From Candidatus Woesearchaeota archaeon (GTDB lineage Archaea > Nanobdellota > Nanobdellia > SCGC-AAA011-G17 > GW2011-AR20), in NCBI GenBank assembly GCA_018302685.1, contig JAGVZK010000021.1, positions 1 through 49,394 of the forward strand: a stretch of 49,394 bases of DNA, written 5' to 3'. Position numbers and translations under genes: made by a program. Below the pieces are notes generated by a model. The model was not told the DNA's origin, did no database searches, and saw only the letters and a program-made list of their open reading frames with translations. Below, piece by piece: positions 15,013-35,616 of the stretch (its first letter is position 1; each line of letters starts with the position of its first letter).

Positions 15013-15585
15013 TTAATTCTCTTCTATCACAAAATGTTTTTCACATCTTGCTTCATACTGCTCTTTTCCCCCAATGACAACCAGCTTATCATCATGATAG
15101 ACAGGCTTTCCATTAGCCAGCCTCTGCGTAAAATTAGCTTCTCTTCCGCAGATCTCGCCATTTTCCCTGTAAGTGCATATGGCAGACAAATAATAAACTT
15201 TGGACATAGCCATTAATTCCCCGACATGCCTCTCTGAATCTTTAAATTTAAATGGTTTGCCCATGAAATCAGTGTTCAATCCTGAAACAATTATCAGTTT
15301 GTTCCTGAATTTCCTGCAGAATCTAACTACCCCATCATCCAAAAACTGGACCTCGTCAATTCCTATAACATCGGCGTCATATCCGTAGAGATCGTCCGAA
15401 TTTTCAGCAGTGATGCATCTGAAGCTGACACCGTCGTGGGTCGTGACATATTCTTCGGAATATCGATTGTCGATTTTTGGCTTGAACAGGACGACTTTTT
15501 TTCCTGAAATGCTCTCCCTTCTCATTCTCCTTATCAGCTCTTCAGTTTTTCCGCAGAACATACATCCTGTGATGAATTCAATCAT
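15013..15585 (-). CDS. tdk: thymidine kinase
   Basis: 190 aa with the P-loop GCMFCGKTEEL, IGIDEVQF, and C-terminal Cys pairs (CTYRENGEICGR, ARCEKH). Confidence 0.9.
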   Translation of the reverse strand: MIEFITGCMFCGKTEELIRRMRRESISGKKVVLFKPKIDNRYSEEYVTTHDGVSFRCITAENSDDLYGYDADVIGIDEVQFLDDGVVRFCRKFRNKLIIVSGLNTDFMGKPFKFKDSERHVGELMAMSKVYYLSAICTYRENGEICGREANFTQRLANGKPVYHDDKLVVIGGKEQYEARCEKHFVIEEN

Positions 15586-15637: not shown

Positions 15638-16564
15638 CTATGGAATAGTCCTATACTTTGTGTTTATCAATGTCCACTCAAATATGAGCAGGAATAAGGC
15701 AATTATTGTGAACCACAGGTCAAGCCTCTGTGTTATTTTTCTTTCCATTGAATTAGCAATTCTGCTGTATGCATCCTGCAACTGAACCTCGTCTTCCGCC
15801 CTGTAATATTCCCCAGAAGTGCTCAGCGCAATGTTCTTCAATGTGGTTTCATCCAGAACAAGCTGGGCTCCATAAAAGTCAGCTCCTTCTTCAGTTCCAA
15901 TTCCTATTGTATAGACAGTAACCTGCCTCAGGTTGATGTATTCTATCGCATCCGCAACAGGAAGCCCAACATTGCTCTGCCCGTCAGTAATAAGGATAAT
16001 CGCCTTTGCATTTTCGCTCCCCATCAGCAAATTCGCGCCGGTAACAAGAGCTTCCCCTATGTCTGTTCCGCCGGTGGAGCTTAGTTCAATGTTTCTTATC
16101 ACCTGGCCCACTTTAAATTTATCATCGGTCAATTCGGACTGCGAGTAGGCCGTGCTGGAGAATGCAACAATTCCCACCTTGTTATCCGGGCTTATCTGAT
16201 CAAGAAAATTTATTGCAGCCGTCTTGGCAGCTTGAAGCCTGCTCGGCGTGAAGTCATCAACAATCATGCTGTTGCTGTTGTCAATCACAATGACGAAATC
16301 ATAATTGCTTCCCAGGCCCTGATACGTAAATGAAACTCCGGAGATTGCAAGTATGAAAAGCAGCAGAATGCAGACTCTGGTGACAAGGAGAAAAAGGTTC
16401 TTGCTCAGCAGCTCTCCGCCAGTAATTCGCTCTATGGCTTCAAAATTGGCAAACTTGAACGCCCTTCTTTTTGTGCTTTTCAGCGTCGTGAAATGAATGA
16501 AGACAAGAATAGGCAGGCTGAACAAAAGCCATAGGTACTCTGGATTGACAAAATTTATCTCCAT
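15638..16564 (-). CDS. VWA-domain membrane protein (BatA-like)
   Basis: 308 aa with N-terminal TM helices, the VWA MIDAS motif VIVIDNSNSM, ITDGQSN, and a C-terminal TM helix. It follows DUF58 and MoxR. Confidence 0.85.
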   Translation of the reverse strand: MEINFVNPEYLWLLFSLPILVFIHFTTLKSTKRRAFKFANFEAIERITGGELLSKNLFLLVTRVCILLLFILAISGVSFTYQGLGSNYDFVIVIDNSNSMIVDDFTPSRLQAAKTAAINFLDQISPDNKVGIVAFSSTAYSQSELTDDKFKVGQVIRNIELSSTGGTDIGEALVTGANLLMGSENAKAIILITDGQSNVGLPVADAIEYINLRQVTVYTIGIGTEEGADFYGAQLVLDETTLKNIALSTSGEYYRAEDEVQLQDAYSRIANSMERKITQRLDLWFTIIALFLLIFEWTLINTKYRTIP

Positions 16565-17445
16565 CTCAGCGACCTCTCCATGAAAAGGTTCAATACTGGT
16601 TTTGTAAATCCCTTGTCAGTTGTCAGGCTAAGGAAATCAGCCCTGTTTCTCAGGAATGCATTCCTTATTTCATTTTCCTGCTTTTTCATCTCCGCCTCGT
16701 AGACCTCTCTTATTAATTCAGGCTCTATCAAAAGCGACCTTTTTGAATAGGGATCCTGGATGACAACCTGCCCTGCGTCTTCAGGGAGCACCTTGTCCCT
16801 CGGGTCTCTCACCATTATTGCTATGGTGTCAAACTTATGCGAAACTATCTCCAAAAATTTTACCCAGCCGTCTTTCAGGCCGACAAAATCAGAGACAATG
16901 ATGACGACAGAATCCTCCTTAAGAAAATTGAGGAGAAATTTTGCGGCATTGTTAAAGTCATAGGCTCCAAAGTAATAATCAGGGTTCAACAGGGCCTTTT
17001 CAAGGACATGAAACTGGCTTCTTCCCTTCGCAGGATAAATCTTGCTGACAATTTTGTCATTGAACATAGCCATTCCGACGCTATCTTCCGCCTCAAGGAT
17101 TGCATATGCAAGCGAGGCAACGAGTTCAACAGTGTACTCATTCTTTAATTTCACAGTGCTCCCAAAGACCATTGAATCGCTGCAGTCAATCAGAAAAAAA
17201 ACACTGACCTCCTTTTCTTCAACATACTGCCTTACAAGAATCTGGTTCGTTCTCAATGTGGCCTTCCAGTCAATCATTGATGCATCATCACCCGAACAAT
17301 ACGGCCTGTATTCAGAGAACTCGAGACCTCTCCCTTTGAAAACACTTCTGTAATTCCCGGAAACTTTTGTTTTGAGAAGGCCCTTGGTAACAATCTCAAG
17401 CCTTCTGATAGAAGGTACTATATCTACATTTAGCTTCCTTTTCAT
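16555..17445 (-). CDS. DUF58 family protein
   Basis: 296 aa. GRGLEFSEYRPYCSGDDASMIDWKATLR is the hallmark DUF58 motif. A VWA-like FLIDCSDSM follows. Confidence 0.85.
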   Translation of the reverse strand: MKRKLNVDIVPSIRRLEIVTKGLLKTKVSGNYRSVFKGRGLEFSEYRPYCSGDDASMIDWKATLRTNQILVRQYVEEKEVSVFFLIDCSDSMVFGSTVKLKNEYTVELVASLAYAILEAEDSVGMAMFNDKIVSKIYPAKGRSQFHVLEKALLNPDYYFGAYDFNNAAKFLLNFLKEDSVVIIVSDFVGLKDGWVKFLEIVSHKFDTIAIMVRDPRDKVLPEDAGQVVIQDPYSKRSLLIEPELIREVYEAEMKKQENEIRNAFLRNRADFLSLTTDKGFTKPVLNLFMERSLRWR

Positions 17446-18443
17446 GGCATCGGAACTTTTCTCAGAATTTCATTTATGACATCATCCCTGTCTATATTCT
17501 CCGCCTGTCCCTCATAATTGAGCAGTATCCTGTGCCTCAGAACATCATGGGCTATCGTCTTGACGTGATGGGGAGTTACATATGTCTGGCCTCTCAGCAG
17601 GGCCTCCGCCTTTGATGCAATGAACATACCAATGGATGCTCTTGGAGAGCTTCCCCATTCAATGTATTTTCCAAGACTTATCTTGTATTTCTGGGGATTC
17701 CTCGTGGCTTCAACTATTCTTATTATATACTTCTCAATATCCTTGCTCAGGAATATGTTCTTGACAAAGCTCTGCAAATCAAGTATTGACCTGGGATCCA
17801 TTACCTTGCTGAGTCTGTAATCATCAAAGTTCTTTAATGTTATATTTTTGCCGAGAATTTCCACTTCCTCATCTGTAGTTGGATACCTTATCTGAATTTT
17901 GAATAGGAACCTATCAATCTGAGCCTCCGGAAGATTGTAAACTCCTGCGCTTTCTATTGGATTCTGGGTTGCCATGACAAAAAACGGAGTAGGCAGCTTA
18001 TGGGTTGTCCTCCCTATCGTGACCTGCTTCTCTTGCATTGCCTCCAATAGAGCAGACTGCGATTTCGGAGGGCTTCTGTTGATCTCATCTGCAATTACAA
18101 AGTTGGAGAACACAGGCCCCTTAATGACCATAAATCCCTTATTTTTGTCATATGTTGTGAGGCCTGTTATATCTGTGGGAAGAAGATCAGCAGTGAACTG
18201 AATTCTCGAGTAATCAACACCCAAAATTTTGGCAAGCGTCCTTACTATCAGCGTTTTAGCTATCCCTGGGACTCCTTCAACAAGGATATGCCCGTCGCAT
18301 ATAACCCCTCTCAAAATTCCGTCAATGACTTCTTGCTGCCCGACGACAGTTTTCTTGGTTTCATTCCTTATCTTCAGAAACAGAGCATGATAATACTTTA
18401 TCTTATTCATGTCAGATTTGCTCAATCCGCCCCTTTCTTTCAT
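17442..18443 (-). CDS. MoxR-family AAA+ ATPase
   Basis: 333 aa with Walker A EGVPGIAKT, Walker B VIADEINRSPPKSQSALLEAMQE, and ATQNPIE. Confidence 0.92.
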   Translation of the reverse strand: MKERGGLSKSDMNKIKYYHALFLKIRNETKKTVVGQQEVIDGILRGVICDGHILVEGVPGIAKTLIVRTLAKILGVDYSRIQFTADLLPTDITGLTTYDKNKGFMVIKGPVFSNFVIADEINRSPPKSQSALLEAMQEKQVTIGRTTHKLPTPFFVMATQNPIESAGVYNLPEAQIDRFLFKIQIRYPTTDEEVEILGKNITLKNFDDYRLSKVMDPRSILDLQSFVKNIFLSKDIEKYIIRIVEATRNPQKYKISLGKYIEWGSSPRASIGMFIASKAEALLRGQTYVTPHHVKTIAHDVLRHRILLNYEGQAENIDRDDVINEILRKVPMP

Positions 18444-18464: not shown

Positions 18465-21400
18465 TTACAATGCATTTTTCTTTTTAAACCTTCTCCTTCT
18501 GTAATAGTAGTAGATCGAATAAAATACGAGCATGAATGCAATGATCTCAATTATCAGTATCGTTGTTTCGTTCAGTAATTCTTTCTTGGGCTCCTGCAAC
18601 GTCAGCCCCGCCCGGTTGACAAGATCTTTGCACGAATTTATTGCAGCCTCAGTTGTCTGTATTGCCTCCTCATAATTCCCCTCCTCGTAAATTTCAATGG
18701 CCCTGTCAATTAATTCCTTTAATTCAAGGCAGATTGGATTTGCCTCCAATAATGACTGTGCAAACTCTATCTTCTGCTTTGACTGAGCTGCAATTCCCCC
18801 TTCTGAAACAAGGTTAATGATGACCTTTGCCCGATCCTCGAAATTTGGCGTTGAAACTTCAGCAAGGACATTGACATCATACTGCCCCGGCTCAACATCA
18901 TCCCCTCTTGTTATTGTCAGGACAACAGGCATTGACTGCCCTCTTGCCAATGAGGGAATATAAGTTGAGCTAAAGACAAATCCCAACCCTTCTGTTCCCG
19001 AGTCAGCGCTCAGGCGGATTCCATACAAGTCTACCCCGCCTGTGTTTCTGAGTATGATCTGCGTCGTGACCTGCTTGTCTTCTGCTACCGTTATGACTCC
19101 TGGCTCTATTATATCCAAATCATAATCGGCCTTGCTTCCCCCTCCGCCTCCTCCGCCTCCTCCAGATCCTGATACAGCTACAGGAGACGTAGTTGCCTCT
19201 GAAACCATGAATACGCTCAGGTTCACCATTGATGCCCTGATATAATTATTATCTGTGCTCAACACGGAATCCAGCAATGTCCACGAGCATGATGCCTGAG
19301 AGTTACACTTGTAAAATTTTAAGTTCTCCTCATACGTTATTGTTCCAAGGACACTTGTGTAGTTGTATGTCATATTGACGCTCTGTGTGCTGCTGTTGGC
19401 TCCATAGGACAGCCCACTACAGCTGAAGTTATATTGGTCAATTGCCCTCGTATTTGTTGGGATTGCAATGCTCTCTGACAAATCCTGATATGCGCAGGCT
19501 TTTCCATGATCTGTGCTGAGGCTTACATTTTCTACCAAAATATTTAATTTGCTGTTTGTTAATTCCAAGTCAAAGTACCCAGAAGGATTTGTGAAGCTCA
19601 CGCTGCTGTTTGATTCAAAAACAGTCTTGCTGCTGCAGATGTCATTTATTGTAAAGTTTGTTATTCCCTCTCCTGTAAAAGTGATGTTCGTATTATTTGC
19701 AACTACCAGAGATGCATTTGAAGTGACGGTTATTCCAGTTTCAGGATAATTGATATCCCTGACCTGAACGCTAAGGGTATGGCTTCCCTCTGTTTTTGGG
19801 CTGTAGCTGAAATTATGTTCATACGTAAATCCCCCAGGTATAAAATCCTCCTCATTGTTGCTAACTGGAGTAAATTGATCAACGGTCCCGTTTGGAAGAT
19901 AGACATATACATCCACAGAATCTAAGAGCACAGACAGGTCAGTGTTGACTCTCACAGTGACATTGGCCTGTTCTATATTAGACACATACGTGTAATCCGG
20001 GCAGAAATAGCTTACTGTCGGATATGTAGCTGTAAGAGTGACAGGTACAGTAATTCTGAACCTTCCAGCTTCGCTCACGTTTGCGCTTGAGCCGATGCTG
20101 CCGTTCCATCCATATGCTGTGACCGTGACATACTGGGACTGGACTGACGGAACATCATAGCTGTAATTGTATGAAGTGTAGCTTCCCTGCGAGCTGTGAT
20201 TTGTGAAGTTAAGATAGCTTGTAAATGAGGATCCCTGAAGCGTAACGCTTATATTGTTGACCCAGTTCCCGTTTCCCATCTCAGTTATATTGAAGTTGTA
20301 TGAATTTCCGATTCTCAAGACCTGATCATAGGTCGGGGCCACAATCTGCAGAGTGGAATAAACAATGCTAAAGTTGCTGTAATTGTAGCTGTTGTAATCA
20401 ACGCTGTCATTTGCCCTTATCCTCAAATAATAGTCTCCAACAGGAGGCATGCTCTCAATCGGCAGAGTGTAATTTGTATAGCTTGTGTTGAATGCGAATA
20501 TCATATACGTTGAGTTGAATTTAGTTGAATTGTAAACTTCAAGCTCATAGCTCACATTGTCCAAATCCAGATCAGTTGAATCATCCCAGTCAAATTCCGT
20601 GTAGTTGTCATTGAGCATTTTGGCGTTAATGGCTGGGAATCTCCAAACAGGGGTCAGTGGAACCCTGTTCTGGACCTTGAATTCACCCCATGAGCTGCAG
20701 TTGGAGTTTCCATTGGTGTCATTGGCGCACCATCTGTAGATTACCGATTCCTGATTCGTGAAATTGTTCCATGTTATGTTGTATGAATACACATCTGTAT
20801 CTGAATTGATGTCAAATGAATTAGATGAATTAGTGTAATTCTGGTAGCTACCCGACCAGTTTCCCTCAACCCATATTTCATGGAGGAACAAGTCAGTGAC
20901 GGTTGCATTCAATGTTACATTGCTCGTCGGATAGCTCGGCTCAGGCGTCTTGTTCACATTAACTATCAATGGAGGGCTTAGGTCAACGCTGAAAATTCTC
21001 GTCTCCGAAATATTGACATTGCTTGAATTGTCATAGACTGATATATTCCACATTGTATTCTGCTGGTCAAAGAACCCTGTGAGGTTCATGTAGGTTATTG
21101 AGTCAAGGCTATTGATTGCAATCGTCGTGCTTGAATTCAGGGTTCCATTTATTGTTATAGTTATGTTCCCTATGCTGTGAAGATCAGACACATTGAATGT
21201 GAAATTGATGCTGCTTGCTCCTACAACAGAATTGTTTACAGGGTAATTAATCAACACTGAAGGCTTGATAGTGTCCCTTACAGTCAGGTTTTCATAAGTT
21301 GTGTTCTCCCTTCCGCTGAAATCAATCGCATATGCCTTCATCGTGTAATTTCCTGTTTTTGTCAGATTTGTTGTAAACAAAGTTACATTGTTCGATGCAT

Positions 21401-22589
21401 TGTTCAGGTGAGTTCCGTCAGGATATGAGATGTTTATGACTGAATAATTCAGCGAAACATCAACTATTGTAAAGTTGACAGTTGAGTTTTCGACCCCAAA
21501 CTCTATTGGAGTCGGGAAAACAGTCAGGTTGATCTTTGGATTTTGGGTGTCAACTCCAAAAGTCCTGTTGCCTGCCAGCGTGTTGTTGTTTCCTGCAGAA
21601 TCGACGCATATTACATTCCAGTCATACCTTCCATCAGATATTCTTGATGCCGACAGGGTGTTCTGTGTCCCTGAAGTCGGAGTCAAATCCGTGGTGTTGT
21701 ATCTCCATATTCCGTCAGTCCAGTTGCCATACAAGATGCAATAATCAAGATTGACATCAGTTGGTGTGTAGATGAAATCAGCGCTCTGGTCCTGGCTCCA
21801 GTATCCATTTGCCGGGCTGTTTAACGTGACTGTCGGGCTTATTGTGTCAACAGTATATGTAAGCGCTTCTGAAGTGTTGCAATAATTAAGCTGATCACAG
21901 TAATAGACTCTCCAATAGTAGGCCGTGTCTGCTCCCAGCTGCTCCGCTCCCAAAACCTGATACTGTATAACCCCCTCCTGTGTCGTGAATGACCTGTCAA
22001 AGCTTGTAAATGCAACATCATTGTCAACCTGGACAGTGTAGTTGTCCAGTCCTGAGTAGTCCTCAGCCCCATTCCATTGGAACAGCGGCGTCCTGTTTGT
22101 TGATACCGTCTGGTTCAAGGGGGATATTAAGCTTGCATTGAAAGGATACCCTGTTTCAACATAGAAATCGGAGTCATACTCAAATGTATTGTTCAAAGTG
22201 TCGTTTACATATAAGGTGTAATTAATTTGCCCCGTTCCATAAGTTGCATTCAGGGCAGGGATTGTTATTTCCCACAATCCTCCTCCTATCTCAACCAGCC
22301 ATCCCCAGAACAGCACTGCAGCATTCTTTATTGAGTCCCAGATGTAAATCCATGCGCTTGATATCTGGCCTATTCCTGAATCTGTGAGATTGAACCTTAA
22401 TGTCAAATTTTCACCATATGTCACGGGGCTTGTATTGTTGACTATCACCTGCCCAGTCGTCCTATTTGCAGTTATGTTCTGAACGGCCACATCAGGATAT
22501 AGTGTATCAACCTGAAAATTCAGCTCACTGCTCCAGTCAGAAAGGGCATTTTCATAAACATCATCATTTGATGTGGAATTGTCAGACAT
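18465..22589 (-). CDS. giant surface-type protein (about 1374 aa) with C-terminal TM anchor
   Basis: ATG at 22589. The track start at 22595 is a TTG two codons upstream. The sequence is dense in N-x-S/T sequons and has a Gly9 linker (SGSGGGGGGGGGSK) and a CARDB-like beta domain. It ends with a helical segment, a TM helix and RRRRFKKKN. No N-terminal signal peptide. Confidence 0.85.
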   Translation of the reverse strand: MSDNSTSNDDVYENALSDWSSELNFQVDTLYPDVAVQNITANRTTGQVIVNNTSPVTYGENLTLRFNLTDSGIGQISSAWIYIWDSIKNAAVLFWGWLVEIGGGLWEITIPALNATYGTGQINYTLYVNDTLNNTFEYDSDFYVETGYPFNASLISPLNQTVSTNRTPLFQWNGAEDYSGLDNYTVQVDNDVAFTSFDRSFTTQEGVIQYQVLGAEQLGADTAYYWRVYYCDQLNYCNTSEALTYTVDTISPTVTLNSPANGYWSQDQSADFIYTPTDVNLDYCILYGNWTDGIWRYNTTDLTPTSGTQNTLSASRISDGRYDWNVICVDSAGNNNTLAGNRTFGVDTQNPKINLTVFPTPIEFGVENSTVNFTIVDVSLNYSVINISYPDGTHLNNASNNVTLFTTNLTKTGNYTMKAYAIDFSGRENTTYENLTVRDTIKPSVLINYPVNNSVVGASSINFTFNVSDLHSIGNITITINGTLNSSTTIAINSLDSITYMNLTGFFDQQNTMWNISVYDNSSNVNISETRIFSVDLSPPLIVNVNKTPEPSYPTSNVTLNATVTDLFLHEIWVEGNWSGSYQNYTNSSNSFDINSDTDVYSYNITWNNFTNQESVIYRWCANDTNGNSNCSSWGEFKVQNRVPLTPVWRFPAINAKMLNDNYTEFDWDDSTDLDLDNVSYELEVYNSTKFNSTYMIFAFNTSYTNYTLPIESMPPVGDYYLRIRANDSVDYNSYNYSNFSIVYSTLQIVAPTYDQVLRIGNSYNFNITEMGNGNWVNNISVTLQGSSFTSYLNFTNHSSQGSYTSYNYSYDVPSVQSQYVTVTAYGWNGSIGSSANVSEAGRFRITVPVTLTATYPTVSYFCPDYTYVSNIEQANVTVRVNTDLSVLLDSVDVYVYLPNGTVDQFTPVSNNEEDFIPGGFTYEHNFSYSPKTEGSHTLSVQVRDINYPETGITVTSNASLVVANNTNITFTGEGITNFTINDICSSKTVFESNSSVSFTNPSGYFDLELTNSKLNILVENVSLSTDHGKACAYQDLSESIAIPTNTRAIDQYNFSCSGLSYGANSSTQSVNMTYNYTSVLGTITYEENLKFYKCNSQASCSWTLLDSVLSTDNNYIRASMVNLSVFMVSEATTSPVAVSGSGGGGGGGGGSKADYDLDIIEPGVITVAEDKQVTTQIILRNTGGVDLYGIRLSADSGTEGLGFVFSSTYIPSLARGQSMPVVLTITRGDDVEPGQYDVNVLAEVSTPNFEDRAKVIINLVSEGGIAAQSKQKIEFAQSLLEANPICLELKELIDRAIEIYEEGNYEEAIQTTEAAINSCKDLVNRAGLTLQEPKKELLNETTILIIEIIAFMLVFYSIYYYYRRRRFKKKNAL

Positions 22590-22591
22590 TC

Positions 22592-23374
22592 TCAATTTCC
22601 ATGTGTAATTCCCCCATCATCAAAGGCGAACCTCTGGAGCTCGTACAAGCTTGCAATTTCAGAGCCTGATAATGACCTGTTGAATATTGCCACTTCATCT
22701 ATATCTAATATTGCCCCATTTGCATTCCCTAGCGCAAAACCATAGCCTTCAATGGAAGCACTTGAGCCAACAATAAAGGTGTTTACTTTGGTATAATTAA
22801 AATAATATGTAATGTTAACCCCATCATATGTTATAGCCATAAAATCCCAAAGAGTAGGACGACTGGAAGGTCCAAAGTTACTGGGGAATTGAGCTGTAGA
22901 AATCCCTCCAGAACTATTGTAAAGAGAAAAATAAGGAATCTGCCCAGATGCACCTTCGAAATTAGTCTTGATCAAACCAGTAAAAGGAGTTCCATTGTAA
23001 AATATCCAATAATAATTCAGAATTGAACTTGTCCACTTCTCAGTCTTAACCCATTGGCTTATCGTAAACTCTGTTGGGTAGGTCCCTATCAAAGAATCAA
23101 TATTTGGAAAAATAATATAATCAGATGAGCTATCAAATTGAGTAGCAACCCTGTCTATCATATGAGAATCAGTGAAGTTTCCATTGGCTTCAGTGTAAGC
23201 TCCAACAATAAGTTCCCCCCCTCCTTGATATATTGTTGCTACATGTGAAGTATTCACTTTATTTATCAAATCACTTCCATCCCACAAAAGCTTCAAACCT
23301 TCAGGATAATAGGCGGTGCTTGGGGAATTTCCAAATATAGAACTTGTATTGTACAACGTTGAATTCAAAATCAA
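22592..23374 (-). CDS. LamG/concanavalin-like lectin-domain protein, C-terminal part of a gene split by a 77-bp duplication
   Basis: 260 aa. DEVAIFNRSLSGSEIASLYE is the terminal motif of Laminin_G_3-type domains. The N-terminal 25 aa duplicate the C-terminus of the upstream ORF. Confidence 0.8.
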   Translation of the reverse strand: MILNSTLYNTSSIFGNSPSTAYYPEGLKLLWDGSDLINKVNTSHVATIYQGGGELIVGAYTEANGNFTDSHMIDRVATQFDSSSDYIIFPNIDSLIGTYPTEFTISQWVKTEKWTSSILNYYWIFYNGTPFTGLIKTNFEGASGQIPYFSLYNSSGGISTAQFPSNFGPSSRPTLWDFMAITYDGVNITYYFNYTKVNTFIVGSSASIEGYGFALGNANGAILDIDEVAIFNRSLSGSEIASLYELQRFAFDDGGITHGN

Positions 23375-23453
23375 ACTTCAGGATAATAGGCGGTGCTTGG
23401 GGAATTTCCAAATATAGAACTTGTATTGTACAACGTTGAATTCAAAATCAAAC
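23300..23453. repeat. exact tandem duplication, 2 x 77 bp
   Basis: 23300-23376 and 23377-23453 are identical base for base (checked by hand). 77 is not a multiple of 3, so the repeat breaks the reading frame of the LamG gene. Confidence 0.95.
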
Positions 23454-24660
23454 TTCCGGAATTATTATAAATATTCAGCACAGGATGCAGTATATCTCCA
23501 TCCAAGTCGCTTTGGTTGGTCCAGTTCATTCTGGTGTGATTGCTGCCTGTCCAAGTCACATTTGTCGGATATGTCAAACTGAAGTTCGCAAAGGGCTGGG
23601 TATTCAGGATTTTAACTTGATAATCCTCCTGCTTAAGAACTACATCCATAAGCACTGGAGTCAAATTTGTATTCAGGGTTTCAAATAAAGCCATGTATTG
23701 AAGATACCTGTAAGATTCTGTTAAATTCTGGATTGAATTTGAGCTTCCATTCGGGATATAATAACTTGACCATGCACTCCAATTTATTTCATTATCTGCT
23801 GCCAATCTGCTTATTCCTGATATATTTGAGGCATTCCAGGAATTTCCAACTCTTGTCTGCAGTTTGAGATTTCCCTCAATGCTTCTGTTATAAATTTCAT
23901 AAACTTCAGTTGATGTTAAAGCCCTGTCCCATATTGCAACTTCATCCAGAGCCCCTACACTATAATCAGGTCCTGTGTACTGATATGCCCCAAGGACAAA
24001 ATTATCCCTGTTATTTATATCCCCCAGCCAGCTCCCATCATTAGAACCTAATGACATAGTAAATGATTGATTTATTCCGTCTATATACAATAGATACTGT
24101 GCACCATCAGAGCCAAAAACAAAATTATGCCATTCATTATCACTATACTGCCCATCAGAACCTACTACAACCTGCCTCCATCCTGCTATTCCATTATTCC
24201 AATAAAAATTAAATTTCCCATTATTAATCCCCAAGAGCAATAGATATATATTATTTCCTGTGTCAGTATCCCCAAAAGTAACATGATACTCGGACCCACT
24301 TCCTACACTTGATTTAAACCAATATGATATCATTCCAGCTTGGTCACCGCTTCTATAATTGGATGAATTATAAACTAAATACTGGCTTCCATTGAACCAT
24401 GTTGCACTTGTATCAATCACATGAATCCCTGTTCCGTTCATATTTATTGTTCCTGCCTGAACGCCCCCAACACTCGCAAATTGGATGGAATTATTTAAGT
24501 AACTTACATTGTTAGAGCCATCCCATCCAAATACCAACCCTGAAGGATAATAGCTTAGATGAGGAATATCATACCCAAAGCCTATCTCGGAGGCATTTGG
24601 ATTAACCCCCAAGTCAAATATCATTGAAGTAAAATTCCCTTTTGAAAAGTATCCATTCAC
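23371..24660 (-). CDS. LamG/concanavalin-like lectin-domain protein, N-terminal part of the split gene
   Basis: 429 aa with a GTG start overlapping the upstream stop (GTGA). LDEVAIWDRALTSTEVYEIYN is the LamG terminal motif. No signal peptide. Confidence 0.8.
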   Translation of the reverse strand: MNGYFSKGNFTSMIFDLGVNPNASEIGFGYDIPHLSYYPSGLVFGWDGSNNVSYLNNSIQFASVGGVQAGTINMNGTGIHVIDTSATWFNGSQYLVYNSSNYRSGDQAGMISYWFKSSVGSGSEYHVTFGDTDTGNNIYLLLLGINNGKFNFYWNNGIAGWRQVVVGSDGQYSDNEWHNFVFGSDGAQYLLYIDGINQSFTMSLGSNDGSWLGDINNRDNFVLGAYQYTGPDYSVGALDEVAIWDRALTSTEVYEIYNRSIEGNLKLQTRVGNSWNASNISGISRLAADNEINWSAWSSYYIPNGSSNSIQNLTESYRYLQYMALFETLNTNLTPVLMDVVLKQEDYQVKILNTQPFANFSLTYPTNVTWTGSNHTRMNWTNQSDLDGDILHPVLNIYNNSGSLILNSTLYNTSSIFGNSPSTAYYPEV

Positions 24661-26324
24661 CTAAAGTCCCCAATAGTTGTATCTATGACATACCTGTTCG
24701 TTGAATTGTCCCCATTTATCTGGCAGTAAATCCTGTCCCCCTTCACGAAATTGCCAGATGATAGAGAGCTTGTATTGCTTCCCAAAGCAGCATCATTCTT
24801 GAACCATTCATAGCTTAAAACAGAAAGGGTTGTATTTGCATAATTGCAGTAGAGAGTGTCATTCACTCTCGCAACAGCGAACTTCTTGTAATCCAAAGTT
24901 GAAGCAGTGTCCATCCACACGGCACTTTGATTGAATTCTGGATTTGTGGTTGAGACAAATTCCAGATTGTTATAAACAGTCCCTAAGTAAACTCCATAAT
25001 TCCTCTCAGAGAAATGGTCAACTATCCATTCAACAACAAAAATGCTTACATTGTTTTCACCAAGCGAGTAATAGGAATCATAAACCCCGATGCTGGCATT
25101 GTTGTCCATATCAGAAATAGACACTGGTTCCCCCTCATAGCCATAGAGAGCAGTGTAGCCAATTACATTCTCATAATATATATCAGAGCCAAATCTGACG
25201 ATCCTTCCATTCTGGATTCCATAGTCCTCAATCGTCCTTGGGCCTTCAGTCTGGTATTCAATTTCAACTTCATTTACACTGTCCTCAATAACAAGGCTTA
25301 CATTCTCAGTAAGATTTGATTCTCCCCCAAAGACAGCAAAGCCGGTGATTCCCCCAAGCCAGTCAAATACAGAATTCCCTGTAATCAAATTTCCGCTGCC
25401 AAGATCTTTTACACTACCATCTTCAACAACCTTGACCCTGTCATTGATCTCAATTTCAGAGCCGCCTTCAATTTTGGTCACGGTAACATTGCTTGCCAAT
25501 TTTGGTATCTCGATTGTAAGATTATCCGAGCTCTGCTCCAGCCTGACAACTTTTTTCCACCTTACAGGCTGGTTTATCCTTATCGGCTCAACAAGCGTTG
25601 TATTCTCTTCGATTCCACTTGGTAATGTAACATTTTCCTGTAGTGTAACATTCTCTATCGTCTCATTCACAGCCTCAACTATGTAGTCGCTTATGTTTAT
25701 TTCAATTGGATTATCAATGCTCTCATTGATTTCAATCGTGTAGTTGCTTGCGTTTAATTCAGGAACGTCTTCCATAGAATCTTCAACAACAAGCGTATCG
25801 CCTACAATCCCTACAATTCCACCATTGTCAATCAGGCTGAGTGTAACAGAATATTCTCCAGGATCCAGCTCAAGCCCAAAATCAGAAGCCCCCGCGTTTA
25901 GCGTGTCTATATAGTATCCATCTTCATCGGCTTCAAGCCCGAACTCTGATATGCTTCTCGAATATTCATCAAGATCAACAAGTAAAATGACGGATGCATT
26001 TGAAGACACATGCTCATTGATTTCAAGGTTGATGCCATCATTCTCAAACACAACAAAGCCAGTAATTCCATAGTTGAAGTAGAAAAAAAGCCCTCCTAAG
26101 AAGAGTATTCCTATTACCAAGAGAGGAATTGCACCACTTATCTTAGGATGCTGAACAACATAATCAGAAGAAGAATAATTTGAATTTCTGAGAGCCTTTT
26201 CTTTCCTGACGGCTTCTCTCTTATCGGAGCTTAAAAAGATATTTTTTACATTGCCATCTTTCCTGTAGTTGGTATACCAGTAGTCATATGACCTGCCATT
26301 CCTCACCACTGTCTTCCTATACAA
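24657..26324 (-). CDS. signal-anchored surface protein with basic cytoplasmic N-terminal module
   Basis: 555 aa. A TTG start at 26324 is preceded by AGGTGA (6-nt spacer), and an in-frame TGA lies three codons upstream. TM helix AIPLLVIGILFLGGLFFYF. The ectodomain is acidic and rich in N-x-S/T. Confidence 0.75.
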   Translation of the reverse strand: MYRKTVVRNGRSYDYWYTNYRKDGNVKNIFLSSDKREAVRKEKALRNSNYSSSDYVVQHPKISGAIPLLVIGILFLGGLFFYFNYGITGFVVFENDGINLEINEHVSSNASVILLVDLDEYSRSISEFGLEADEDGYYIDTLNAGASDFGLELDPGEYSVTLSLIDNGGIVGIVGDTLVVEDSMEDVPELNASNYTIEINESIDNPIEINISDYIVEAVNETIENVTLQENVTLPSGIEENTTLVEPIRINQPVRWKKVVRLEQSSDNLTIEIPKLASNVTVTKIEGGSEIEINDRVKVVEDGSVKDLGSGNLITGNSVFDWLGGITGFAVFGGESNLTENVSLVIEDSVNEVEIEYQTEGPRTIEDYGIQNGRIVRFGSDIYYENVIGYTALYGYEGEPVSISDMDNNASIGVYDSYYSLGENNVSIFVVEWIVDHFSERNYGVYLGTVYNNLEFVSTTNPEFNQSAVWMDTASTLDYKKFAVARVNDTLYCNYANTTLSVLSYEWFKNDAALGSNTSSLSSGNFVKGDRIYCQINGDNSTNRYVIDTTIGDFR

Positions 26325-33784: not shown

Positions 33785-34894
33785 TTAGATGTACAGGCTG
33801 TACAGTTGGGTTATCTCCTCCTGGGTTAAAGTTCTTCTCCATATTGCAATTTCATCCGCATAGGCAATCTTGTTGGAATCCGGGCTGTTGTACATTATCT
33901 TAAAATTATAGCCTCCAATGTGCTCGCTCTCACCAGCGACATAAGTTGATTTTTTTACCCCATTCCTGAAGAAGGTGATGTTAATCCCGTCATAGGCTAT
34001 CAAAAAATGATTCCATGCCGTTGGATTGCTTGATGGTTTGTATGAATCAAGGCTTAAGGCTGGGTTCGAGCCTGAGCTATTCTGAAAAACGAAATAAGGG
34101 GTTTGTCCGCCGGAGCTCCACAGTCTTGTCCTTATAGTGCTCCCATTGTAGAATCCCCAGTAGGTGGAGGTGGTCGACGGTGTGTCATATTCAACTTTCA
34201 CCCACATAGATACTGTGAATTCATTAGGATTCGTACCTATCAATAAATCTAAGTTTGAAAACTGAATATACTCATTTGGAGATTTCATTTTGGTTCCAGT
34301 TCCTAAATACCCCTCTGCATTTCCTGCCTGGATCCCTCCTCCCAATATTCCAACGAGTCCTGAAACATAATCAATATTATTTGAGCCGTCCCATCCAAAA
34401 ACAAGCCCCTCGCCGGATAAGTGGAATTCCGTTTCACTCCGCTCAAGAACATCAAAAATGCTTCCATCCTCTTTTGTTCCAGAATAAGAGCCTTCTATGC
34501 TATGAATTAAATTTCCCTTGGAAGTGTACATTACTCTTATGTTCCCTGAAACCTTGTCATAATCAGACATATCAAGGGCGCATCCTGTAAAAGTCTCATC
34601 GCCTAGACCAGTATTGTACAAAGATCCCCCAAGATCATAGCATGACTCACCATTGATTGATATGTCTGTGATGTTGGCCTCGTCAACCAAATTCTTTGAT
34701 ATGTGGAACAGTATTCCATTATCCTTCACGATCATATCCTCTATCAAAAGCGGAGCCTGTATTTGGTAGCTGTTGGAGGTTTCATGAGAAAAAATGCCAA
34801 GGTAAAACAGAGCGCCCAAAACTATCAGGACACCTATGATAGCCCAGCCATAAGTCATCAAGAACTCCATGGCAGCCTGCCCTCTTTTTAACAT
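33785..34894 (-). CDS. type IV pilin-like protein (class III signal peptide) with a LamG lectin domain
   Basis: 369 aa. The N-terminus MLKRGQAAMEFLMTYGWAIIGVLIVLGALFYLGIF suggests a prepilin peptidase site KRG|QAAME with Glu at +5. The C-terminus ADEIAIWRRTLTQEEITQLYS is the LamG motif. Paralogous to 22592-24660. Confidence 0.8.
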   Translation of the reverse strand: MLKRGQAAMEFLMTYGWAIIGVLIVLGALFYLGIFSHETSNSYQIQAPLLIEDMIVKDNGILFHISKNLVDEANITDISINGESCYDLGGSLYNTGLGDETFTGCALDMSDYDKVSGNIRVMYTSKGNLIHSIEGSYSGTKEDGSIFDVLERSETEFHLSGEGLVFGWDGSNNIDYVSGLVGILGGGIQAGNAEGYLGTGTKMKSPNEYIQFSNLDLLIGTNPNEFTVSMWVKVEYDTPSTTSTYWGFYNGSTIRTRLWSSGGQTPYFVFQNSSGSNPALSLDSYKPSSNPTAWNHFLIAYDGINITFFRNGVKKSTYVAGESEHIGGYNFKIMYNSPDSNKIAYADEIAIWRRTLTQEEITQLYSLYI

Positions 34895-34914: not shown

Positions 34915-35616
34915 TTATTTAAAATTATCCAAAATCTCCTCTTCAAGAAAATGCATTCTTCCAGGGACAATAAGGCACTGCGGAAACCTTTCAAATTTTA
35001 CTTTTAAGATATTATCTGCATTTCCCGCCTTGATTTTTTGGTCTTCATATCCAAGCCTTTCAATTCCAACGACAAGCCTGTTTTCCATGCCCTGCTTTCT
35101 CAATCTCTTGATGGACTCATTGATGCTCATGAATTTGTTCTCTCTTGGATTGAGATCAAGCAGGAACAAAGTGTGCATTCCAAGCTTGAGGTTATCCCTG
35201 AGCCCTCCCACAAGATCCACATCCTGAAACGGAACGCTTATGGTCTTCCCAAAATTATAAAGGCTTAATCCAATGTTTGAAACAAGAGTCAGTATTGAAA
35301 TGTTGTGTATGACTTTAACTTCAATGTTCTTTTTTATTGCGTCAAGATAAAGCGAGATGTGCGTCGTTGCAGAAAAGACATCCCCATAGAATAGGATCCC
35401 TATATTTTTTTCCCCGGCGCTCTTGACGTCATAATTCTCGACAAAGTCCCTGCCAACGACATCAATTCTTTTATTGAAAATACCACTCAATTCAACAAGG
35501 CTTATTCCGAGGGAAGTGTATCCCTCAAGATAAACCTCATCGCACTTCTTCACAGATTCAATGGCCCCGAGGTTTATGTCTTCCTTGCTTATTCCAAGGC
35601 TTATCAAGTAAAGCAT
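34915..35616 (-). CDS. dphB: diphthine synthase
   Basis: 233 aa. MLYLISLGI...VYLEGYTS...FYGDVFSATTH matches the tetrapyrrole-methylase-fold Dph5 pattern. Confidence 0.85.
   Translation of the reverse strand: MLYLISLGISKEDINLGAIESVKKCDEVYLEGYTSLGISLVELSGIFNKRIDVVGRDFVENYDVKSAGEKNIGILFYGDVFSATTHISLYLDAIKKNIEVKVIHNISILTLVSNIGLSLYNFGKTISVPFQDVDLVGGLRDNLKLGMHTLFLLDLNPRENKFMSINESIKRLRKQGMENRLVVGIERLGYEDQKIKAGNADNILKVKFERFPQCLIVPGRMHFLEEEILDNFK

Follow-up and report, generated by a model that had tools for sequence, protein, structure and literature searches.

A probable modular type IV pilin of a DPANN archaeon with a LamG head related to a module of a giant surface protein

Does a 369-aa protein encoded among the housekeeping genes of a Candidatus Woesearchaeota archaeon serve as a pilus subunit with a lectin-type head, and how is that head related to the LamG modules of a surface protein encoded on the same contig? 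The window analysed here, 49,394 nt long (GenBank assembly GCA_018302685.1, contig JAGVZK010000021.1), is the whole of contig C21 of a 473-kb, 28-contig, 78%-complete genome with 38% GC, and the gene occupies 33785..34894 of its minus strand in the list of open reading frames (ORFs), with the stop codon at 33785-33787. A life in attachment to other cells is assumed for DPANN archaea, but the ways in which they recognise and hold their hosts are largely unknown. We consider it likely, with a probability of roughly 0.7, that the gene product is an archaeal modular type IV pilin comprising a complete pilin stem, a flexible tether and a LamG head.

The N-terminus of the product reads MLKRGQAAMEFLMTYGWAIIGVL (at greater length, MLKRGQAAMEFLMTYGWAIIGVLIVLGALFYLG), and because the ATG at 34894 is the only start codon within the open frame, the leader comprises five residues, MLKRG (residues 1-5, 34880..34894, minus strand, read from the sequence). 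The class III (prepilin-type) signal KRG| that the initial annotation placed at the start of the protein is borne out: MLKRG| precedes QAAMEFLMTYGWAIIGVLIVLGALFYLG, with Gln at +1 and Glu at +5 of the mature form, and the motif is invariant in homologues, with Q6, E10 and L12-I19 invariant or almost so in comparisons of 14-21 of them. A prepilin peptidase would cleave the 369-aa precursor after Gly5; a +1 Gln and a +5 Glu mark archaeal pilins processed by EppA (PMC4371748). The stretch QAAMEFLMTYGWAIIGVLIVLGALFYLG forms a hydrophobic N-terminal alpha-helix (residues 6-31, 34802..34879, minus strand), the best-conserved part of the family, which in the AlphaFold2 (AF2) models starts at residue 3/4 and ends at residue 31. 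It is followed by the globular head of the pilin module itself, an eight-stranded Ig-like beta-sandwich (residues 42-140, 34475..34771, minus strand; AF2 predicted local distance difference test score, pLDDT, ~90), and by a probably flexible linker of low pLDDT (residues 146-160, 34415..34459, minus strand), from which homologues bearing other C-terminal domains diverge onward. Modelling of the stem alone returned a helix at residues 3-31 and an eight-stranded beta-sandwich at residues 42-140 (pLDDT 88).

The decisive evidence for a pilin stem is genomic context. Matches to residues 1-~143 were found in 54 of 101 genomes sampled from the same order, mostly in open frames of ~141-235 aa, often in tandem, and for roughly a third in frames of 290-660 aa; relatives encode one to six small stand-alone pilins of the stem family. 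The closed genome G065, from the same family, has in succession a winged helix-turn-helix (wHTH) gene, a gene for a 485-aa ATPase, two T2SSF platform genes and three pilin genes. These three pilins (149, 161 and 159 aa, with starts of the type K[RK]AQTAMEFLMTYGWAILI) belong to the same family as the 369-aa stem, and the ATPase is 66% identical to that encoded on contig C3 of the window's genome. In a further genome (G028), pilin-module genes lie 2-3 kb downstream of a T2SSE gene. Since stand-alone pilins of this family are linked to the machinery in G065, we regard the 369-aa stem as the pilin module of that machinery with an added head. In other homologues, the stem is combined with beta-helix/NosD, CBM-type, collagen-C-type or unassigned heads; a homologue search restricted to residues 1-150 yielded nothing additional.

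Within the window's own genome, contig C3 encodes a wHTH protein, the ATPase (485 aa; PF00437, E 1e-36) and two T2SSF proteins, and contig C8 carries a second T2SSE locus. With one ATPase gene and two platform genes, C3 has the arrangement reported for 'system 1' type IV filaments (T4F) in methanogens and Nanobdellati (DPANN) (PMC13705601). A weak Arc_PepC_II match on C3 was considered as the peptidase and rejected, as it belongs to an ABC transporter. On contig C10 (9303-9740; L008:1486-1923, minus strand), a 145-aa ORF that runs off the contig end weakly matches archaeal A24 C-terminal domains. The G065 peptidase has 279 aa, with PF01478 in its N-terminal half, and the ORF aligns with its residues 135-278 at 44% identity (E 1e-30); a convergent HIT-family gene adjoins both. 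Judged by these similarities, the fragment is the C-terminal half of an A24 prepilin peptidase, and Peptidase_A24 was present in all five near-complete relatives tested. Thus, of the machinery that the initial annotation tied to its pilus reading, the ATPase and platform genes (C3) and a second T2SSE gene (C8) were recovered, whereas the peptidase is represented only by this C-terminal half.

These data bear on a rival reading in which the protein would simply be a membrane protein with a type II signal anchor, resembling class III substrates only in appearance, left uncut and unrelated to T4F. Such a reading gains from the purely predicted nature of the cleavage and from an assembly that lacks the catalytic portion of the peptidase. 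However, KRG|Q...E and the helix are invariant in a family whose small members directly follow ATPase and platform genes, and the assembly does contain the peptidase's C-terminal half; we hold this explanation to be highly improbable.

Several observations nevertheless count against the modular pilin reading itself. Foldseek searches with the stem-only model gave generic Ig-like matches only, none with E<=1e-3, sequence and profile searches of the PDB with the stem found no solved pilin, and neither Pfam nor NCBIfam has a model for it; with only such generic matches and no PDB pilin, the fold is compatible with a pilin but not diagnostic of one. A PF01478 profile search of the 78%-complete genome gave no match, as the end of contig C10 cuts the peptidase gene and leaves its catalytic half unassembled. 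The 369-aa gene has no T4F gene as a neighbour in this genome, and the assembly contains no stand-alone pilin of the family in complete form. Regarding the lectin part, the AF2 loops of the pilin LamG are of low confidence, and LamG domains bind proteins and lipids too, so that 'lectin' is used here as a family label only.

The isolated position of the gene also bears on a second explanation, a bindosome-like or pseudopilus display in which the protein, processed by the peptidase and anchored by its helix, would act as a cell-body lectin, alone or on a short stalk, with no long pilus. Archaeal class III signals serve non-pilus surface proteins far larger than pilins (PMC4371748, PMC13705601), the gene lies among housekeeping genes at a distance from the T4F loci, and its product is 2.4 times as large as the stand-alone family pilins. 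The Sulfolobales bindosome resembles the present case in its large binding proteins with a class III signal and in its T4F-type ATPase and platform; it differs in the ABC substrate-binding fold of its proteins, which lack a pilin beta-sandwich, in its role in nutrient uptake and in its Bas machinery. The 369-aa stem, by contrast, is a full machinery-linked pilin module, beta-sandwich included, the Pfam scan showed no homology to ABC substrate-binding proteins, and the scores of the ATPase against the BasE and BasA models fell far short of the cut-offs. A display of this kind appears unlikely to us.

The C-terminal part of the putative pilin is a LamG (Laminin_G_3/ConA-like) jelly roll (residues 161-369, 33788..34414, minus strand), as delimited by Pfam PF13385, Foldseek and the boundary of a hidden Markov model (HMM) of the module. 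Laminin_G_3 (PF13385) matched residues 207-361 with an E-value of 1.5e-14 (54.9 bits vs a cut-off of 27.6); the Pfam scan of the protein gave neither an N_methyl match nor any other in the N-terminal 160 aa. In the full-length AF2 model, residues 148-160 have a pLDDT <50 and are followed by the jelly roll, for which Foldseek returned ConA-like lectin jelly rolls (E ~1e-9, probability 1.00). Each of the fold matches listed is a lectin or binding module, in some cases one that forms part of an enzyme or toxin. A GH16-type enzyme head was rejected, as no ExDxxE-type motif was seen and no Pfam glycoside hydrolase model matched; the head may bind carbohydrate.

According to the initial annotation, a GL-x-x-x-WDGS motif precedes each of three LamG modules. 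The motif does occur once per module (EGLVFGWDGS, EGLKLLWDGS and SGLVFGWDGS), ahead of each Pfam envelope. However, in the AF2 model LVFGW forms a strand (residues 164-168), and the module HMM aligns the motif position with the GLVGxWxFDG strand of distant bacterial LamG_3 proteins. GLxxxWDGS is therefore the first strand of the fold, outside only the Pfam envelope, and the module extends over approximately residues 161-369; in the pilin, this first beta-strand motif, GLVFGWDGS, spans residues 163-171 (34382..34408, minus strand).

How would such a modular pilin work? The precursor would insert into the membrane through its class III signal, and the A24 prepilin peptidase would remove MLKRG to expose the +1 Gln. 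The C3 ATPase and the two TadC/FlaJ-like platform proteins would then pull the hydrophobic helix from the membrane and build a filament otherwise made of ~150-aa pilins of the same family. Because the LamG-bearing subunit is bulky, it would probably occupy the tip or be spaced sparsely over the fibre, and its head could there bind a ligand, most likely a glycan, presented by a host cell or a surface. That the protein enters a filament, its place there and the nature of the ligand are predictions. A different arrangement, in which the 369-aa protein would itself be the major filament-forming pilin and the fibre would be LamG-coated over its full length, could draw on the complete pilin module with its flexible linker, on bacterial work that leaves a location of modular pilins in the filament body possible (PMC8179133) and on the lack of an intact small pilin of the family in the assembly. 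Yet relatives encode one to six small family pilins, often in tandem beside the machinery; a second family member, MNRRG|QAAMEFLMTYGWAILVVLIALGALFYLGVF, begins on contig C16 (7203-7309; L039:3704-3808, plus strand) and is cut after 35 aa by the contig end; and a 210-aa head on every subunit would be sterically demanding. We rate a fully LamG-coated fibre as improbable.

Another important question is whether the LamG head of the presumed modular pilin is shared with other surface proteins. The genome contains only three LamG modules, all on the window contig. Two of them lie in a gene at 18465..26324 of the minus strand that is read in the window as four ORFs (24657-26324, 23371-24660, 22592-23374 and 18465-22595) and which, by comparison with sibling contigs, encodes a giant surface protein of ~2,600 aa with N- and C-terminal membrane anchors. 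LamG #1 (23887..24546, minus strand), inside ORF 23371-24660, is a distant relative of the pilin LamG, and LamG #2 (22637..23302, minus strand), inside ORF 22592-23374, is its paralogue. BLASTP of the pilin against the 22592-23374 product gave 89 identical residues of 225 (40%; E 4e-39), with identities between the pilin LamG and LamG #2 of 40-45% across comparisons, and the close alignment described previously is fully reproduced, all quoted peptide pairs included. Against the 23371-24660 product, identity was 25% (25-29% across comparisons; E 3e-9), which is the ordinary level between LamG domains. Hence, the claim of a LamG module common to the pilin and the MoxR-linked operon holds for the 22592-23374 product as a close paralogue, the 23371-24660 product being only distantly related.

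The relationship with LamG #2 was assessed in two further ways. When residues 160-369 of the pilin were used as a phmmer query against 1.84 billion representative proteins, the protein itself and a contig-end variant ranked first, followed by P0025 (E 4e-31), a related giant protein of 1,108 aa with three LamGs, and by P0026 (E 5e-30), which is the window's own ORF260. Below these two, matches were no better than ~1e-21, and reached that level only via multiple LamG repeats. The heads of the full-length homologues P0003, P0094, P0111, P0115 and P0164 reached only ~1e-8, and the stems of the same proteins are 43-53% identical to that of the 369-aa protein. Maximum-likelihood analysis of 43 LamG modules joined the pilin head and LamG #2, which is encoded 11 kb away, as sisters with support of 96/99, so that both this clade and the phmmer ranking place the similarity beyond that between unrelated LamGs. 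The two modules are each other's nearest known relatives, no protein unrelated to this locus being closer. The pair is nested in a larger clade (96/84) that mixes modules borne by pilins with those of giant proteins; forcing the eight pilin-borne modules of that clade together, a grouping chosen after the tree had been seen, cost 42 log-likelihood units and was rejected by the approximately unbiased (AU) test (p = 0.003). These results indicate that LamG head and stem were not inherited together and that the head comes from a LamG subfamily common to the pilins and giant adhesins of this lineage.

Both sister modules keep the loop segments SGGQTPYF.FQNSSG and PSSNPTAW, which are absent from other LamGs and hint at related ligands; divergence between the two is not concentrated in loops, identity being 43% in strands and 45% in loops. 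The earlier proposal that one carbohydrate-binding-type module is displayed on both a pilus subunit and an anchored surface complex is supported in its paralogy and its pilin stem, whereas the display on a pilus and the binding of carbohydrate are predicted. The broader notion of a modular attachment repertoire is supported insofar as LamG occurs on both the pilin and the giant protein; within this genome it is based on LamG alone.

The giant gene lies directly upstream of genes for MoxR (AAA_3), DUF58 and VWA/BatA proteins at 15638-18443 (Pfam assignments). An operon of this kind with an anchored surface complex had been described from the window; the MoxR-DUF58-VWA genes are indeed there, but the LamG-containing products are pieces of one ~2,616-aa protein. 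In the sibling contigs L012 and L014 (99-100% identical), a single intact ORF encodes 2,616 aa with N- and C-terminal membrane anchors. Relative to the siblings, the window carries an 88-nt deletion (24661|24660), a 77-nt duplication (23296-23449) and a G run lengthened by two (22611-22615), and every one of these lesions is equivalent to a frame shift of -1. The tandem duplication at 23296..23449, whose copies are 99% identical, separates ORF429 from ORF260 and is absent in four sibling assemblies. The 88-nt deletion is flanked by imperfect direct repeats, AATGGGACATTTTCA and AATGGATACTTTTCA, which encode NGTFSS and NGYFSK (window 24630-24690), an arrangement compatible with slippage or assembly collapse. 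In the siblings L011 and L013, a ~100-nt duplication near the 5' part is found instead, with ORFs of 2,021 and 1,997 aa.

Variation of another type affects LamG #1. The window and L013 have one version of the module and L012 and L014 another, with 31% aa identity between the two versions and flanks that are 99-100% identical; the replaced span is 23875-24514 in the window and 4012-4645 in L012. This pattern looks like a cassette swap within one population. It is tempting to extend this to LamG heads in general, as cassettes that would move between pilins and giant adhesins and be swapped among co-occurring strains, with sister heads recognising the same or a related host ligand. Besides the replaced LamG #1, hints in its favour are the sister relationship of the pilin head with LamG #2, the mixing of pilin-borne and giant-borne modules in the tree and the loop segments kept by the two sisters. 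We consider this generalisation tentative and rather doubtful. If it were true, docking could proceed in two stages, with long-range capture by the pilus followed by close contact via the giant protein.

How does the 369-aa protein compare with known systems? The lectin-headed pilin design is not new, being known in bacteria and predicted in archaea. In Streptococcus sanguinis, PilC bears a ConA-like lectin module, and PF13385 ranks with the modules most often grafted onto pilins of bacteria (PMC8179133, PMC9934059); for archaeal 'system 1' T4F, proteins that combine a class III signal with a binding domain have been reported (PMC13705601). With S. sanguinis PilC/PilB, the 369-aa protein shares the succession of pilin module, short linker and ConA-like lectin-type module, together with a proposed role in adhesion at the pilus tip. 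The stems, however, show no detectable sequence relationship, and the archaeal Ig-like beta-sandwich contrasts with the alpha-beta roll of bacterial pilins. In addition, PilC has an intervening Ig module that the 369-aa protein lacks, and no PilA-like partner is known for the putative archaeal pilin. The modular pilin survey of Raynaud et al. 2021 relied on the IPR012902/N_methyl motif, which the 369-aa protein does not have. As this motif is bacterial, the protein is an archaeal analogue rather than a member of the InterPro-defined set, and a survey keyed on it could not have found the archaeal protein, although the defining combination of a complete pilin module (residues 1-145), a linker (146-160) and a PF13385 head is present.

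Among archaea, the Epd pilins of Methanococcus maripaludis are similar in their short basic leader, +1 Gln and +5 Glu (PMC4371748), and Epd and 'system 1' loci are similar in having one ATPase gene, two platform genes and extra pilins encoded away from the machinery (PMC4371748, PMC13705601). They differ in that the major Epd pilin has no globular domain, unlike the family of the 369-aa protein with its beta-sandwich head, and in the peptidase, which in G065 is a 279-aa FlaK/PibD-like protein. The Pfam model Class_IIIsignal (PF04021) gave no match. What goes beyond the known systems is the well-supported sister relationship, seen in the module tree, between a pilin head and a giant-adhesin module, coupled with apparent strain-level swapping of the neighbouring module.

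The 369-aa protein probably serves attachment to a host or surface. In a genome of ~0.5-0.6 Mb that also spends ~8 kb on one giant adhesin, a lectin-headed pilus subunit offers a concrete candidate for the contact between a DPANN archaeon and its host. The sister heads link pilus and cell-body adhesin in a testable way, and at ~210 aa the recombinant heads are small. Moreover, the IPR012902-keyed bacterial survey overlooks a family of archaeal pilins that has no annotation and is found in about half of the genomes that were sampled from the order.

With respect to its location, the pilin gene begins 20 nt after a TP_methylase/diphthine-synthase-type (dphB) gene and ends 32 nt before elp3, all on one strand, which confirms its reported position between the two; Mre11 and Rad50 genes lie farther upstream on the same strand. 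The sequence TTTTAAATAA (34915..34924, minus strand, read from the sequence), centred ~26 nt upstream of the pilin ATG and overlapping the dphB stop codon, is a possible archaeal TATA box. The exact 369-aa protein is present on 12 contigs from several groundwater metagenomes, in which the order dphB-pilin-elp3 is fixed, and the homologue P0001 differs by one residue. In five other genera of the family, neither dphB nor the pilin gene was found beside elp3. The label of 'dispersed paralogue' given to the gene therefore suits its LamG, with the qualification that its place is fixed in the 12 sibling contigs and that synteny is not kept in other genera. Homologues are labelled as Pacearchaeota or Nanoarchaeota metagenome-assembled genomes (MAGs), which, together with the groundwater origin of the identical gene copies, places the organism among the DPANN archaea.

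At one sibling contig end (L010:1-340), 340 nt of other sequence stand in place of the 5' half of the pilin gene, giving a 219-aa 'LamG-only' call (P0002) whose LamG is 98% identical to that of the pilin and whose N-terminus differs. Neither the window's genome nor four other sibling loci contained a match to these 340 nt. P0002 was considered as a natural head swap, but the differing, unmatched segment lies at a contig end that is probably chimeric. A cysteine pair common to most family members (xxC...APFxCxD) is missing from the pilin at residues 44-53 (34736-34765; SYQIQAPLLIED), and the homologue P0004 is likewise without both conserved cysteines; this looks like the paired loss of a probable disulfide. 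Sequon density per 100 aa is 1.1 in the pilin vs 5.3 in the giant surface protein.

A rule-based census of the genome revealed ~15 further class III-like ORFs, several in small clusters, besides the family member on C16, which it records as MNRRG|QAAMEFLMTYGWAILVV. They are located on C12 (5372-7525), C17 (1904-2957), C10 (330-921 and 2623-3186), C26 (1799-2293), C8 (713-862 and 31384-33309), C20 (4653-5813) and C9 (27777-28790). In the seven that were scanned, Pfam at cut-off gave no known domain. Taken at face value, the census amounts to a large pilin-like repertoire for a genome of ~0.5-0.6 Mb.

Two additional observations concern neighbouring genes. A MinD/ParA-type ATPase gene lies ~1.2 kb upstream of the family member on C16. 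Beyond the thymidine kinase gene (window 15013-15585), a gyrB gene (1,140 aa, minus strand) is located at a distance of ~3.5 kb, as seen in the sibling contig L011 (13712-17134); it carries Intein_splicing and faint LAGLIDADG matches and is therefore an intein-containing gyrase B.

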